Of a DNA stretch of 20,762 nt, positions 2,906-14,462 are shown in pieces (position 1 is the stretch's first letter; each line of letters starts with the position of its first letter). The notes beneath the pieces were generated by a model that saw only the letters and a program-made list of their open reading frames with translations, was not told the origin of the DNA and made no database searches. This stretch comes from a virus. Its lineage: Duplodnaviria > Heunggongvirae > Uroviricota > Caudoviricetes. The position numbers and the translations under genes are program-made. The DNA lies in IMG/VR virus record IMGVR_UViG_2671180828_000006; one strand, 5' to 3'.

Positions 2906-4189
2906 TTACTTCTTCGCCTCTGCAACCACTTTACTACCCACGCCGCGGTTATTGTATTCCCACATGCGGTTGTAGTTAGTGTCATTCAGATTGCGCTGTA
3001 TTTCGTCGTTATCATCTACGCTGCCGGTATTACCCGCAAACGGACGATTAGAGATCACCGCATCGGCCCACGGTTTAGCCGTGTTAAAACCTTCGTTGAT
3101 GGCGCTATCACGGATCACCACCTGACCGTTGGTATTGGCATCAACATCCAGCGAGCGGCCCAGTTGCGCCACACCATCACCGAAAGCATTGAAACGGCTG
3201 TTTACGGCGAGGAAACCGTAGTAAATGTTGGACAGCGTAGCCGGTGCAAACACATACGCTTCTTGCTGAGTACGTGAGTTCACCACGCGGAATTCGGTGT
3301 TATCGAACACCACTGCGCCGCGACCAGAAACGATATCCACATCCCCTTCAATGTAGCTGTTGGTCACCAGCGTACGCGGCTGACGATTTGTTTCCAGACG
3401 GTTCTGCACACCGCTGTTGGTGACAAAGAAGGTGTTCTGACGACCGAGAATGTTAACGTTGTTAATCTGTACCTGGTCACCATCAGTACGCAGTGCCACC
3501 GCCGGATGGTTACCTGCATCTACGCTATCGCCCAGCGTGTTTTCGATGGTCAGATTTTGCAGTTGCAGGCCATTGTTTTGTGACCAGAAGACCGCAGAGC
3601 AGAGAACACCGATACTGTCGCTGCGTTTGCTCTGGCAGCTATCGTACATATACCACGCTGGTTTACCTGGCATATATTTGCCGCGCGGGTTGACGTCGTG
3701 ACGCCAGTCGGCAGGGCTCATGCCACCATCAAGGGAAAGCCCAATCTTCACATCAATCGGTTTTTCACCTGTACCGTACAGAGTAATTCCACCCGGAGCG
3801 GCAGGGACATATACCGTTCCCTGATACTCACCAGGCATCACGGCAATATACTGGCGCTTGTTGGTACGCTTGATAATTGCCGCATCTACCGCCGCCTGAA
3901 TCGTGGTATGCGTTACACCTTGAGTGCCCGCCGGGCCGACAACAAAGTCAGGTTGCGCAGGCAGGGTAATCGGGGAAGGATTCCACGCTGCAGCACCTGG
4001 TGTCAGGGATGCAAAATAGTGTTGAGCATCGAAATTCTGCGCTTCTTTTGCCGACAGAATCGGGCGAGAAGAGGTACCAGGCGCGGTTTGATCAGAAGGA
4101 CGTTGATCGGGCGGGGTTGAGCTACAGGCGGTCAGCGTCACGCCAAAAGCCAATGCCAGCGCCAGACGGGAAACTGAAAATGTGTTCAC
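2906..4189 (-). CDS. ybhC: Pectinesterase-family outer-membrane lipoprotein YbhC
   Basis: 427-aa ORF with signal peptide and lipobox (LTAC); pectin-esterase-like sequence; known neighbour of the lambda attachment site. Confidence 0.85.
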   Translation of the reverse strand: MNTFSVSRLALALAFGVTLTACSSTPPDQRPSDQTAPGTSSRPILSAKEAQNFDAQHYFASLTPGAAAWNPSPITLPAQPDFVVGPAGTQGVTHTTIQAAVDAAIIKRTNKRQYIAVMPGEYQGTVYVPAAPGGITLYGTGEKPIDVKIGLSLDGGMSPADWRHDVNPRGKYMPGKPAWYMYDSCQSKRSDSIGVLCSAVFWSQNNGLQLQNLTIENTLGDSVDAGNHPAVALRTDGDQVQINNVNILGRQNTFFVTNSGVQNRLETNRQPRTLVTNSYIEGDVDIVSGRGAVVFDNTEFRVVNSRTQQEAYVFAPATLSNIYYGFLAVNSRFNAFGDGVAQLGRSLDVDANTNGQVVIRDSAINEGFNTAKPWADAVISNRPFAGNTGSVDDNDEIQRNLNDTNYNRMWEYNNRGVGSKVVAEAKK

Positions 4190-9995: not shown

Positions 9996-10364
9996 TCAGG
10001 CGGCCTTGATAGTCATATCATCTGAATCAAATATTCCTGATGTATCGATATCGGTAATTCTTATTCCTTCACTACCATCCATTGGAGGCCATCCTTCCTG
10101 ACCATTTCCATCATCCCAGTCGAACTCACAAACAACACCATATGCATTTAAGTCTTTCGAAAGTGCTATAAGCAGAGCATGTTGCGCCAGCATGATTAAT
10201 ACAGCATTTAATAAAGAGCCGTGTTTATTGAGTCGGTATTCAGAGTCTGACCAGAAATTATTAATCTGGTGAAGTTTTTCCTCTGTCATTACGTCATGGT
10301 CGATTTCAATTTCTATTGATGCTTTCCAGTCGTAATCAATGATGTATTTTTTGATGTTTGACAT
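9996..10364 (-). CDS. ea10: Ea10 (early-left protein, SSB-like), 122 aa
   Basis: MSNIKKYIIDYDWKASIEIEIDHDVMTEEKLHQINNFWSDSEYRLNKHGSLLNAV... matches lambda Ea10 from recall. Confidence 0.85.
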   Translation of the reverse strand: MSNIKKYIIDYDWKASIEIEIDHDVMTEEKLHQINNFWSDSEYRLNKHGSLLNAVLIMLAQHALLIALSKDLNAYGVVCEFDWDDGNGQEGWPPMDGSEGIRITDIDTSGIFDSDDMTIKAA

Positions 10365-10567: not shown

Positions 10568-10747
10568 TTAACCAAGTTCTCTGGCAATCATTGCCGTCGT
10601 TCGTATTGCCCATTTATCGACATATTTCCCATCTTCTATTACAGGAAACATTTCTTCAGGCTTAACCATGCATTCCGATTGCAGCTTGCATCCATTGCAT
10701 CGCTTGAATTGTCCACACCATTGATTCTTATCAATAGTCGTAGTCAT
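10568..10747 (-). CDS. ral: Ral (restriction alleviation), 59 aa as encoded here (ends at an in-frame TAA)
   Basis: Hand translation MTTTIDKNQWCGQFKRCNGCKLQSECMVKPEEMFPVIEDGKYVDKWAIRTTAMIARELG*; under 60 aa so not in the track. Confidence 0.7.
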   Translation of the reverse strand: MTTTIDKNQWCGQFKRCNGCKLQSECMVKPEEMFPVIEDGKYVDKWAIRTTAMIARELG

Positions 10748-10941: not shown

Positions 10942-11496
10942 TTGATGAGTATAGAAATGGATCCACTCGTTATTCTCGGACGAGTGTTCAGTAATGAACC
11001 TCTGGAGAGAACCATGTATATGATCGTTATCTGGGTTGGACTTCTGCTTTTAAGCCCAGATAACTGGCCTGAATATGTTAATGAGAGAATCGGTATTCCT
11101 CATGTGTGGCATGTTTTCGTCTTTGCTCTTGCATTTTCGCTAGCAATTAATGTGCATCGATTATCAGCTATTGCCAGCGCCAGATATAAGCGATTTAAGC
11201 TAAGAAAACGCATTAAGATGCAAAACGATAAAGTGCGATCGGTAATTCAAAACCTTACAGAAGAGCAATCTATGGTTTTGTGCGCAGCCCTTAATGAAGG
11301 CAGGAAGTATGTGGTTACATCAAAACAATTCCCATACATTAGTGAGTTGATTGAGCTTGGTGTGTTGAACAAAACTTTTTCCCGATGGAACGGGAAGCAT
11401 ATATTATTCCCTATTGAGGATATTTACTGGACTGAATTAGTTGCCAGCTATGATCCATATAATATTGAGATAAAGCCAAGGCCAATATCTAAGTAA
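10942..11496 (+). CDS. sieB: Superinfection exclusion protein B (SieB); start may be the internal ATG (MYMIVIW...)
   Basis: ...MYMIVIWVGLLLLSPDNWPEYVNERIGIPHVWHVFVFALAFSLAINVHRLSAIASARYKRFKLRKR... matches lambda SieB; on the + strand inside the leftward operon as in lambda. Confidence 0.85.
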   Translation: MMSIEMDPLVILGRVFSNEPLERTMYMIVIWVGLLLLSPDNWPEYVNERIGIPHVWHVFVFALAFSLAINVHRLSAIASARYKRFKLRKRIKMQNDKVRSVIQNLTEEQSMVLCAALNEGRKYVVTSKQFPYISELIELGVLNKTFSRWNGKHILFPIEDIYWTELVASYDPYNIEIKPRPISK

Positions 11497-11820: not shown

Positions 11821-11920
11821 CTGGATTCTCCTGTCAGTTAGCTTTGAGTAACGCGCCGTGATGCTTATCCCCACGGTTGCTGTCTTGCAGCTGCATTTCG
11901 CGCTACTCAAAGCTTTCTGC

Positions 11921-11950
11921 TTTGAATGCTGCCCTTCTTCAGGGCTAAAT
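11921..11950 (-). promoter_or_regulatory. nutL (boxA GCTCTTAAAAA and boxB hairpin GCCCTGAAGAAGGGC on the minus strand)
   Basis: Reverse complement of 11921-11950 gives '...gctcttaaaaatttagccctgaagaagggc'. Confidence 0.7.
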
Positions 11951-12001
11951 TTTTAAGAGCCTCACCTTCAATGGTGGTTAGTGCGTCCTGCTGACGGGCT
12001 A

Positions 12002-12066
12002 AGTATCACCGCTAGTGGTATTTGTGTCAACACCGCTAGAGATATTTTATCACCGCAAATGGTTAT
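12002..12066 (-). promoter_or_regulatory. pL promoter with OL1-OL2-OL3 operators (-35 TTGACA and -10 GATACT on the minus strand)
   Basis: Reverse complement reads 'tatctctagcggtgttgacacaaataccactagcggtgatact'; three 17-bp sites with TATCACCGC-type half-sites. Confidence 0.75.
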
Positions 12067-12225
12067 CTGTATGTTTTTTATATGGATTTATTTTTTCGAG
12101 TGAGTGTATTGCCTCGGCGATGTAAGGAGAGATCAGAATTGCGTTGTTTAGTGAGTTGTATCTATTTATTTTCCAATAAATACAATTGGTTATGTGTTTT
12201 TAGGTGGGGCGATCGTGAGGCAAAG

Positions 12226-12254
12226 AAAACCCGGCGCTGAGGCCGGGCTTTTAG
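12226..12254 (-). terminator. Intrinsic terminator downstream of the cI-operon cargo gene (lambda t_imm position); hairpin flanked by A-run and T-run, so potentially bidirectional
   Basis: 'aaaacccggcgctgaggccgggcttttag' (CCCGGC/GCCGGG stem). Confidence 0.6.
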
Positions 12255-12269
12255 GGCGGGTTGATGCTC

Positions 12270-13307
12270 TTAACACCCTTTAATGGGAGTTGAGATACGA
12301 GATATCATTGCTGATTCAATTATCCCACTTCTGACTTTATAGTCACCAAAAAGAGAAATTGAATCAGAAAGTTTCATGCTTTCATAAAGAAGGTCTGTTT
12401 CGTCTTTATCTATAAAATCAGTAACAACATAAGCAGGGAAGGTATAATCAGTGCCAACCTTTTTGCAAGTTACTGTCAGCTTTCCATCTGATTTTTTAAT
12501 GCCTTCAATTTCAACTTCTTCTGTAAGTTCTTTGTTGGAAAGTTTCTCACGTGGGTTTCTTATCATTTCGGCAATATCACGCTTATCTAATTCGATCTTT
12601 GCCATACCATTAAACTCTACTCTGTCAGCATCTGAGACGCCTTTCAACACCCCAACCACAGCATTTGAAGTATGGGATTGAATTCCCTCTGAAATCTCCC
12701 TCGCAGCTGCTGTGGCAGTATGAGCAGAAAGAACTTCAACCATGCCATCTTTAAGCAGTCTCATTTGCTCAGTTTGGCTGTTGGTGTCGTTGAGGCCTTC
12801 ATCAATCTCAAGTTGCTTCATTTTTTCTATATGGCGATCTTTTTGTCTCGACTTTATCAGCCAAGCCCCAGTAAGGATCAGCGATATGAGAACGAGACAT
12901 ATAGCTTTCTCTGTTCCAGTCATACCTTGTGTTGACCTCTCAAATGCAACACCAAATGAATCAATTACATCCTTTATAGCAACAAGTAGGTCAGTACAGC
13001 CAGGCTCAACTTTAAAAATTATCTCAAGCTCTTTTCTATCACTGTCTTTCAAATGCTTGAGATTATCCGTTCCTCGCCTTACAAGCATAAACGCTTTATA
13101 AAGTTCGGTCTGAAACTCGCACATACCTTGAGCTAAAGAGGACGGTATCGTCCCATTATACCGGTCTGGATCACCATAAATCTTGAAACTTACGTGGTTA
13201 ACAAAATCAATTTTAATGTCATTGATAGATATTTGCTGACCTTTCTGAACTCTTTCTAAAAACTCTGAAACGTCGCTTAATGATGAGATATCAATTTGAT
13301 TGTCCAT
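12270..13307 (-). CDS. Uncharacterised ~345-aa protein with one central predicted TM helix, occupying the rexA-rexB slot downstream of cI (track ORF extends to 13394 via an upstream alternative start overlapping cI)
   Basis: Track ORF 12270..13394; the ATG at 13307 (MDNQIDISSLSDV...) lies 22 nt after the cI stop with a GAGAAAAG Shine-Dalgarno-like tract; hydrophobic segment AICLVLISLILTGAWLI; visibly AT-rich; no resemblance to RexA/RexB as recalled. Confidence 0.6.
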   Translation of the reverse strand: MDNQIDISSLSDVSEFLERVQKGQQISINDIKIDFVNHVSFKIYGDPDRYNGTIPSSLAQGMCEFQTELYKAFMLVRRGTDNLKHLKDSDRKELEIIFKVEPGCTDLLVAIKDVIDSFGVAFERSTQGMTGTEKAICLVLISLILTGAWLIKSRQKDRHIEKMKQLEIDEGLNDTNSQTEQMRLLKDGMVEVLSAHTATAAAREISEGIQSHTSNAVVGVLKGVSDADRVEFNGMAKIELDKRDIAEMIRNPREKLSNKELTEEVEIEGIKKSDGKLTVTCKKVGTDYTFPAYVVTDFIDKDETDLLYESMKLSDSISLFGDYKVRSGIIESAMISRISTPIKGC

Positions 13308-13329
13308 ATCTTTTCTCAATGTTATTGTG

Positions 13330-14046
<717 letters not shown>

Positions 14047-14053
14047 TTAAATC

Positions 14054-14118
14054 TATCACCGCAAGGGATAAATATCTAACACCGTGCGTGTTGACTGCTT
14101 TACCTCTAGCGGTGATAA
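14054..14118. promoter_or_regulatory. OR3-OR2-OR1 operators with divergent pRM (leftward) and pR (rightward; -35 TTGACT, -10 GATAAT)
   Basis: 'tatcaccgcaagggata ... taacaccgtgcgtgttgactgctt tacctctagcggtgataat'; cI starts at 14043 (leaderless) and cro at 14144 after AGGAGG. Confidence 0.8.
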
Positions 14119-14134
14119 TAATTGCATGTACTAA

Positions 14135-14344
<210 letters not shown>

Positions 14345-14351
14345 ATAACAC

Positions 14352-14383
14352 CGCTCTTACACATCACAGCCCTGAAAAAGGGC
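14352..14383 (+). promoter_or_regulatory. nutR (boxA CGCTCTTAC and boxB hairpin GCCCTGAAAAAGGGC)
   Basis: 'cgctcttacacatcacagccctgaaaaagggc' between cro and cII. Confidence 0.7.
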
Positions 14384-14462
14384 ATCCAATTAAACCACAC
14401 CTATGGTGTATGCATTTATTTTCATACATTCAATCAATTGTTATCTAAGGAAATACTTACAT

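Follow-up and report, generated by a model that had tools for sequence, protein, structure and literature searches.

The window analysed here is a 20,762-nucleotide stretch of viral DNA (IMG/VR record IMGVR_UViG_2671180828_000006) which represents the early region of the lambdoid phage mEp332; by megablast, positions 11900-14400 are 99.9% identical to EF120456.1 and PV340541.1, the mEp332 immunity region and the complete mEp332 genome, respectively. Our subject is a 345-amino-acid open reading frame (ORF) on the minus strand (12270..13307), designated mEp33204 and listed in RefSeq as a 'hypothetical protein' (WP_001507092.1), which lies between the cI repressor gene and the t_imm terminator. 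Its stop codon is at 12270-12272. The mechanically called ORF begins at 13394 and specifies 374 amino acids, overlapping the 3' end of cI; a start at the ATG of 13307 yields the 345-residue product, and this is the one annotated for the coding sequence (CDS) in both EF120456.1 (CDS mEp33204) and PV340541.1. The gene is supported by its translation, by the annotated mEp332 CDS and by membership of the phage protein family PHROG 6191.

The upstream gene of the operon is the repressor of lambda immunity, cI (13330..14043, minus strand), which shows 96% nucleotide identity to lambda cI. A gap of 22 nt separates it from the ORF downstream, and no terminator was seen within this gap. Directly 3' of the ORF is the intrinsic terminator t_imm (12222..12251, minus strand), annotated as Timm in EF120456 and conserved with lambda. 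The terminator scan gave no minus-strand entry for t_imm and the hairpin was instead folded directly: it has a 6-bp GC stem extended by A/U pairs, a 6-nt loop and a U-run, with a free energy (dG) of -20.4 kcal/mol (z -2.4). The presumed lysogenic promoter for cI and the ORF is pRM (14050..14078, minus strand), which overlaps OR3/OR2 and was placed from the EF120456 annotation (record positions 3538-3566 plus an offset of 10512); pL (12002-12030) lies beyond t_imm, along with the OL operators. The ORF lies where cI transcripts from pRM or pRE would read through before reaching t_imm, which agrees with the place in the cI transcription unit that a preliminary description of this DNA had given it. 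From lambda biology we infer joint transcription with cI in the lysogen, ending at t_imm. Inside the ORF five promoter-like sites were found against 4.7 expected in shuffled sequence, and since such sites are no commoner than by shuffling, no internal promoter of the pLit type is proposed. One promoter-like site near the 3' end of the ORF (12319-12346, minus strand; GTGACT, 16-nt spacer, GATAAT, extended -10 TG) faces t_imm and is probably a chance occurrence.

The ORF occupies the position which rexA and rexB hold in lambda. Using blastn, homology to lambda reaches position 12247, the base before the rexB stop, and resumes at 13334, 4 nt inside the end of cI. The cassette bounded by these conserved flanks (12248..13333, unstranded) thus replaces lambda 35825-37230, that is rexB, rexA and the cI-rexA spacer, with 1,086 bp in mEp332 taking the place of 1,406 bp in lambda. 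The preliminary description was correct in placing a single ORF of ~345 amino acids in the rex slot between a lambda-like cI and terminator, and the junctions make this an exact replacement of rexAB. It had also presented the replacement as previously unrecognised, which was an overstatement since the swap was annotated in 2007 (EF120456) and the variability of the slot is published. The rexAB swap is not new: EF120456 has carried the gene as a conserved hypothetical since that year. The record stems from the study of wild lambda-immunity phages by Degnan et al. 2007.

The GC content of the ORF is 38.5%, with 32.4% at third codon positions (GC3), compared with 45.4 and 44.1% for cI, 50.3 and 47.2% for N, and 46.7% GC for the whole window. 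Lambda rexA and rexB are likewise low in GC (40.2% and 42.5%). These values uphold the proposal that the ORF is more AT-rich than cI and N, and its acquisition as an AT-rich cassette is supported.

Other lambda-immunity phages match the 11900-14400 query on the flanks only, with a coverage of 56-57% by megablast. The same slot contains RexAB in lambda, ev243 and SfI, an NYN-domain protein in ev099, and other hypothetical proteins in HK244, HK542, HK544, CL707 and PhiR5_2; the content therefore varies among phages which share cI, the operators and N, as is characteristic of hotspot cargo. In two reports which cite Degnan et al. 2007 (PMC8585504; bioRxiv 10.1101/2024.02.24.581848), the cI-N region is described as a hotspot of mosaic diversity. 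The slot between cI and N is a defence hotspot in which RexAB, BstA and the HigBAC toxin-antitoxin-chaperone system reside (PMC8585504; bioRxiv 10.1101/2024.02.24.581848). What is new here is a hotspot cargo from a family without a characterised relative, and with an N-terminal domain that has no match in the searches made.

The cassette is mobile between immunity regions. Escherichia coli CFS3246 carries a 100% identical copy of the ORF behind a cI gene which shares only its C-terminal half with that of mEp332; the half encoding the N-terminal DNA-binding part of CI, the operators and cro all differ. Homology extends over window positions 12222-13740 (L028 2453-3971 in CFS3246), a block which thus takes in the end of cI along with the cassette. 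This pattern indicates that a recombination breakpoint lies in cI, near position 13740, and that the cassette has moved between immunity types.

No similarity to RexA or RexB was found, as the preliminary description had maintained: the best BLASTP match had an E-value of 1.6, hhalign comparison of a 142-sequence family profile gave probabilities of 0.5% for RexA and 0.2% for RexB, and there was no Rex match in Pfam or PADLOC. The 345-residue protein had no match of any kind in Pfam, NCBIfam or PADLOC (Pfam and PADLOC at E<=1), and the single sequence had none in the PDB. Its sole family match was to PHROG 6191 (E=6.3e-116), a phage family of unknown function, with residues 1-344 aligning to positions 4-337 of the 338-position profile. 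The ORF product thus belongs to this family over its full length; the family has no functional annotation and so does not indicate a mechanism. The preliminary description had called for homology and structure searches as well as PADLOC, and these, once run, matched no characterised protein family, yielding only PHROG 6191 and a C-terminal OB-fold.

A word-indexed database search gave 11 relatives, and a profile scan of genome contigs with the alignment of these 11 sequences gave one locus. By tblastn, the query matched only 10 of 50,697 phage records, from Escherichia/Enterobacteria, Pasteurella and Salmonella phages; there was no staphylococcal or lactococcal match in this collection, to which Staphylococcus phage 53 belongs, and sequence similarity to PdpSau or AbiP was not detected, no direct profile comparison with AbiP having been made. 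When 1.84 billion cluster representatives (50% identity) were searched with a profile, 810 clusters were recovered at E<=1e-3 and 340 at E<=1e-10, nearly all of them 310-350 amino acids in length and aligning end to end. The named sources are E. coli, Salmonella, Yersinia, Morganella, Citrobacter, Enterobacter, Klebsiella, Shewanella, Pontibacterium and Pasteurellaceae, and a Pantoea member came from the DNA scan. All of the relatives from named sources are from Gammaproteobacteria, and all are labelled hypothetical.

Pfam (E<=0.01) and PADLOC searches with 142 family members produced scattered single matches without consistency. LeoBC (two members) and JetC, BrxB, DUF7947 and others (one each) were treated as noise. 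The family profile matched in the PDB only the transmembrane region of MotB and Tom20, both at E>=0.016 and both through the helix region; homology to these proteins was set aside since the matches reflect a transmembrane-like segment. The 2025 record PV340541.1 labels the product (XSB41013.1) a 'T2SS GspM containing protein'. This label was rejected, having no Pfam support in the query or in the 142 relatives; GspM has a short cytoplasmic N-terminus in place of the 134-residue N-terminal domain present here, and the context is one of phage immunity and not type II secretion. It seems to read too much into the membrane helix region. The ORF product stands outside the Rex, GspM, known exclusion-protein and retron-effector families, and is a member of PHROG 6191 with a C-terminal OB-fold.

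The ratio of non-synonymous to synonymous substitutions (dN/dS) was 0.035-0.10 for pairs with unsaturated synonymous divergence (dS 0.1-0.86), from which we conclude that purifying selection on the gene is strong. The allele of mEp332 is a rare one, with copies of 99.7-100% identity in 18 of 5,426 complete E. coli genomes; another E. coli allele, the PhiR12 type, shows 42% identity, and more distant alleles also occur. One variant of the PhiR12-type allele (P0010; L025 4001-4738 and L026 4001-4738) carries an in-frame deletion of approximately residues 64-159, leaving a product of 245 amino acids which has lost the second half of the N-terminal domain and the hydrophobic helix; it is still located directly downstream of cI, and could be either a product of decay or a soluble derivative. 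The ORF is a real, intact, selected gene, found in phages only.

Linkage to repressor genes is the strongest evidence in this analysis. The family gene lies directly downstream of, and co-oriented with, a prophage repressor in mEp332 (lambda cI), E. coli CFS3246, PhiR12_2 and a Pantoea prophage, and in a further case one identical family protein is found behind two different cI/cro pairs. It is also repressor-linked in Morganella prophages, where a DUF3024 gene intervenes; in phi458, the product of which is a full-length family member (hhalign E=5e-40); in a very common Salmonella prophage (466 collection blocks); and in P2-like prophages from Pasteurellaceae and gut metagenomes, in one of which the gene starts at the base after the end coordinate of the repressor. 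In 23 of the 29 IMG/VR contigs which extended far enough upstream, the first co-oriented ORF on that side was a CI-type repressor, with gaps of 22-222 nt, and a further three had such a repressor within ~1.3 kb (26/29 in total). Since this linkage is maintained across many immunity types and in P2-like prophages, it makes a stronger case for an accessory function expressed in the lysogen. Distant members are found in other accessory-gene slots, namely after the Q antiterminator in Avibacterium, between head genes in a Mu-like Shewanella prophage, and, in Klebsiella, at a prophage border between icd and int. One family record is from a Lederbergvirus. All of the contexts examined are phage or prophage, and no conserved partner gene was seen in them.

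Several of these loci contain additional cargo. In a Morganella prophage, a 113-amino-acid DUF3024 protein (L006 5566-5907) is encoded between cI and the family member, showing that the slot is not limited to a single cargo gene. A Glaesserella P2-like prophage encodes DUF7424 and DUF3800 proteins nearby (L021 5573-7331), and a Salmonella prophage a DndB-family protein (L070 8190-8999). These arrangements suggest that the family gene is often found among other accessory or defence-type genes. In Pasteurella phage Pmp14 (OR544131.1; L004 2653-5017), a family member with 25% identity is located directly downstream of a complete type VI retron (HTH_VI E=2e-32; RT_VI E=2e-88), the reverse transcriptase of which is annotated merely as 'polymerase'; the msr/msd RNA had no Rfam match at this locus. 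We considered whether the family might be a retron effector and rejected this: the adjacent Pmp14 retron is complete by itself, the adjacency occurs once only, and there was no PADLOC match to a retron effector. Outside Pmp14, none of the contexts examined had a called reverse transcriptase.

The structure of the protein was predicted with AlphaFold (AF2). A model based on 11 sequences was unusable (pLDDT 60); with 142 family sequences pLDDT rose to 90.8, with a pTM of 0.85. Residues 1-125 (12933..13307, minus strand) form a predicted alpha/beta domain with a pLDDT of ~90-96. By per-column conservation this is the best-conserved part of the family, the C-terminal half being more variable. Residues conserved in at least 90% of members are G45, L86, G103 and M129, the last just after the domain, and Y50, Q66 and S/C104-T105 are common. 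The next element is a central hydrophobic helix, AICLVLISLILTGAWLI, at residues 135-151 (12855..12905, minus strand; AF2 helix 131-148), a putative transmembrane anchor with a 19-residue Kyte-Doolittle mean of 2.09. Its position is kept in the family, the median start being residue 131; of 144 members, 105 reach a score of 1.6 or more and 140 a score of 1.2 or more. A charged helical region at residues 152-223 (12639..12854, minus strand) consists of a juxtamembrane helix, modelled at 150-165 with low confidence (pLDDT ~60), followed by a helical hairpin at 170-223, whose helices 170-194 and 200-223 have a pLDDT of ~92. A small beta-alpha unit (229-250) then leads into the C-terminal domain (approximately residues 255-340; 12288..12545, minus strand), a five-stranded barrel (257-339) in the order beta1-3, helix, beta4-5. 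With its helix between strands 3 and 4 it resembles known OB-folds. The preliminary description had correctly recognised the central hydrophobic helix; its flanks of ~160 and ~170 residues are in fact ~134 and ~194, and the simple single-pass topology implied there is only a putative one.

All of the structural matches listed for the model were OB-fold proteins, among them the toxin-B and YgiW types, which bind sugars or small ligands, and none was a fold match to the N-terminal domain. Foldseek against BFVD returned two uncharacterised phage proteins only. There is no signal peptide before the 134-residue N-terminal domain, and an N-in/C-out orientation is favoured on this ground. The cysteine content, with none after the helix in 97 of 142 members and often odd numbers in the N-terminal domain, weakly points to the same orientation.

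We compared the ORF product with known systems. RexAB has in common with it the slot from the cI stop to t_imm, upstream of OL/pL and co-oriented with cI, an AT-rich composition relative to cI, a membrane component (RexB is a membrane protein) and presumably transcription with cI. In lambda, however, there is a two-gene sensor and membrane-channel system, whereas a single ORF fills the cI-t_imm interval in mEp332, and its OB-fold is not the RexA fold. RexB is polytopic; the ORF product has one hydrophobic helix. PdpSau of Staphylococcus aureus prophages and lactococcal AbiP are abortive-infection systems of one protein each, combining a membrane anchor with an OB-fold (PMC10127798), and, like the ORF product, are phage- or prophage-borne with one hydrophobic membrane helix. 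They differ from it in that their anchor is N-terminal, not central and preceded by a conserved 134-residue domain, and in that their OB domain is basic; the slot of PdpSau, in addition, is after the lysis genes. The ORF product resembles RexAB in slot and probable expression, and PdpSau and AbiP in domain logic, though in another arrangement and with another charge.

BstA and HigBAC also lie directly downstream of a prophage repressor, and are presumably served by its promoter (PMC8585504; bioRxiv 10.1101/2024.02.24.581848). They are unrelated proteins, BstA being cytoplasmic and DNA-associated and HigBAC a toxin-antitoxin-chaperone system, and neither was matched in PADLOC by the query or the family. 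HK97 gp15, P22 SieA, T4 Imm and SNIPE (PMC13190303) share with the ORF product a (putative) membrane anchor, an association with phages or prophages and presumably constitutive expression, so that it could act at the site of phage genome entry. The classical exclusion proteins show no homology to the ORF product, which is much larger and has a conserved non-membrane N-terminal domain; from SNIPE it differs in containing neither a nuclease nor a DUF4041 domain (Pfam, PADLOC).

Other accessory genes of the pL region adjoin the ORF. These are ral (restriction alleviation; 10568-10747, minus strand), sieB (superinfection exclusion B; 10942-11496, plus strand) and ea10 (9996-10364, minus strand). 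In AT-richness sieB (39.1% GC) and ea10 (38.2% GC) match the 345-residue ORF.

We consider it probable that the ORF product is a lysogen-expressed, membrane-anchored anti-phage protein of some kind. The preliminary description had put the ORF forward for defence or exclusion; its candidacy has been strengthened by the repressor linkage in both lambdoid and P2-like prophages, and it stands as a good candidate for a defence or exclusion gene not described before, the case for such a role consisting of position, of membrane anchoring together with an OB-fold, and of analogy. We tentatively suggest a sensor-effector of the abortive type. In such a scheme, the ORF would be co-transcribed with cI from pRM, like rexAB in lambda, and its product would insert into the inner membrane as a one-polypeptide sensor-effector, in which the variable C-terminal stalk and OB domain would recognise a component of the infecting phage, and a response at the membrane would come from the conserved N-terminal domain together with the hydrophobic helix. 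This response might be abortive infection by membrane perturbation, in the manner of Rex, AbiP or PdpSau, or arrest at the membrane. We slightly favour this scheme because of the large size of both soluble parts, the conservation of the putative effector side and the existence of Abi proteins with an anchor and OB-fold; a conserved N-terminal and a variable C-terminal domain would also fit a conserved effector and a variable sensor. More doubtful is the larger proposal that the ORF product is the founding member of a widespread and hitherto unrecognised single-protein class of prophage immunity, a transmembrane sensor-effector made alongside the repressor in lambdoid and P2-like lysogens, which would replace RexAB functionally with one polypeptide and a new mechanism. 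Here phage attack would be sensed at the envelope by the stalk and OB domain, and the N-terminal domain, with a novel fold, would act across the membrane.

A number of observations weigh against an anti-phage sensor-effector. No PADLOC model was matched by the query, or consistently across the 142 family members. No catalytic or pore-forming motif was found, the conserved residues being mostly Gly, Leu, Met and aromatic. The OB domain (residues 255-340) has a net charge of -4, with a family mean of -2.4 (standard deviation 4.0) over the last 115 residues, these being net and not surface charges, and is in this respect unlike the basic, nucleic-acid-binding OB domain of PdpSau and AbiP. The positive-inside rule was uninformative, with 58 members favouring one orientation and 62 the other, and the high pTM may signify that both soluble parts were modelled as one body. 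Strong purifying selection with no sign of diversification in close pairs is unusual for a sensor engaged in an arms race. The 245-residue variant, which has lost the hydrophobic helix, is frequent among E. coli prophages (82 collection blocks). Lastly, a literature search revealed no paper on the ORF product, nor expression or phenotype data for it or any homologue.

HK97 gp15, P22 SieA and T4 Imm are phage or prophage exclusion proteins which act at the inner membrane, and the ORF product might likewise bring about superinfection exclusion, blocking genome entry so that the DNA stays out and the cell survives. SNIPE, a defence protein, acts at the injection site (PMC13190303). In an N-in/C-out protein the helical stalk and OB domain would be periplasmic, and the latter could bind the tail tip, tape-measure or ejection proteins, or an inner-membrane entry factor. 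This is a possible role, and nearly as likely as the sensor-effector: the N-terminal domain, with no signal peptide, would most simply be cytoplasmic and the C-terminal part thus outside; the cysteine-poor part after the helix would agree; and an acidic OB domain, which may speak against nucleic-acid binding, fits better here, as does the default N-in topology. Known entry blockers are, however, small and have no large conserved cytoplasmic domain, and it is the N-terminal domain which is most conserved in this family. Its distribution over lambdoid, P2-like and Mu-like phages and a Lederbergvirus record shows, moreover, that it is not bound to one injection route, the positive-inside rule lends this orientation no support, and the query matched no Pfam or PHROG exclusion-protein family at E<=1. 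A membrane protein in a lysogen-expressed position could also belong to lysogenic conversion unrelated to phage defence, altering host physiology (stress tolerance, surface or colonisation) from the envelope like lambda lom and bor. The hosts are gut- or pathogen-associated Gammaproteobacteria (E. coli, Salmonella Typhi, Yersinia, Morganella, Klebsiella and Pasteurellaceae), such a role agrees with purifying selection that is strong and shows no obvious diversification, and the toxin-B/YgiW-type OB-folds would suit a sugar or small ligand. We regard this as rather unlikely, however: the occupants of the slot with known function all act on phage, the neighbouring cargo in several loci is defence-related (type VI retron, DUF3800, DndB), and the family has been seen only in prophages and phages.

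Very tight linkage to repressors of many specificities, to the point of leaving no gap in one P2-like prophage, would also be expected of a modulator of the prophage's own lysis-lysogeny switch or induction, which might feed an envelope signal to the repressor circuit. The homology block which the CFS3246 cassette shares with the C-terminal half of cI is in keeping with this, as is a two-domain, membrane-spanning layout which may be likened to that of one-component transmembrane signal transducers. There is also a precedent, RexA being reported to influence or bias the lambda switch (PMC11077077). The same protein nevertheless follows repressors unrelated to one another, some having an S24 peptidase domain and some not, which makes a specific protein-repressor contact unlikely; distant members lie far from any repressor, and phages of the same immunity manage without the ORF. 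We therefore deem a role in the switch improbable. That the gene is a passenger, decaying or selfish, which at present does nothing for phage or host is hardly credible. The rarity of the mEp332 allele and the frequency of the helix-less deletion variant in E. coli prophages could be so read, but against this stand the dN/dS values, full-length conservation across 810 clusters and a synteny kept in unrelated phage types.

The cI-N interval is among the best-known prophage sites for genes which protect the lysogen, and RexAB, BstA and HigBAC from it became model defence systems. The family described here is large (810 clusters), confined to phages and without functional recognition, and is linked to repressors in E. 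coli, Salmonella Typhi, Yersinia, Morganella, Pantoea and Pasteurellaceae. Its role is readily testable, as mEp332, a laboratory phage, lysogenises E. coli K-12 and its locus differs from that of lambda by a clean cassette swap. Should the ORF product prove to be a defence or exclusion protein, it would add a new protein family in which the N-terminal domain has a novel fold and the layout is unusual, in that a central membrane helix is placed between two sizeable domains, and it would bear on the prediction of phage susceptibility in clinical Enterobacterales.

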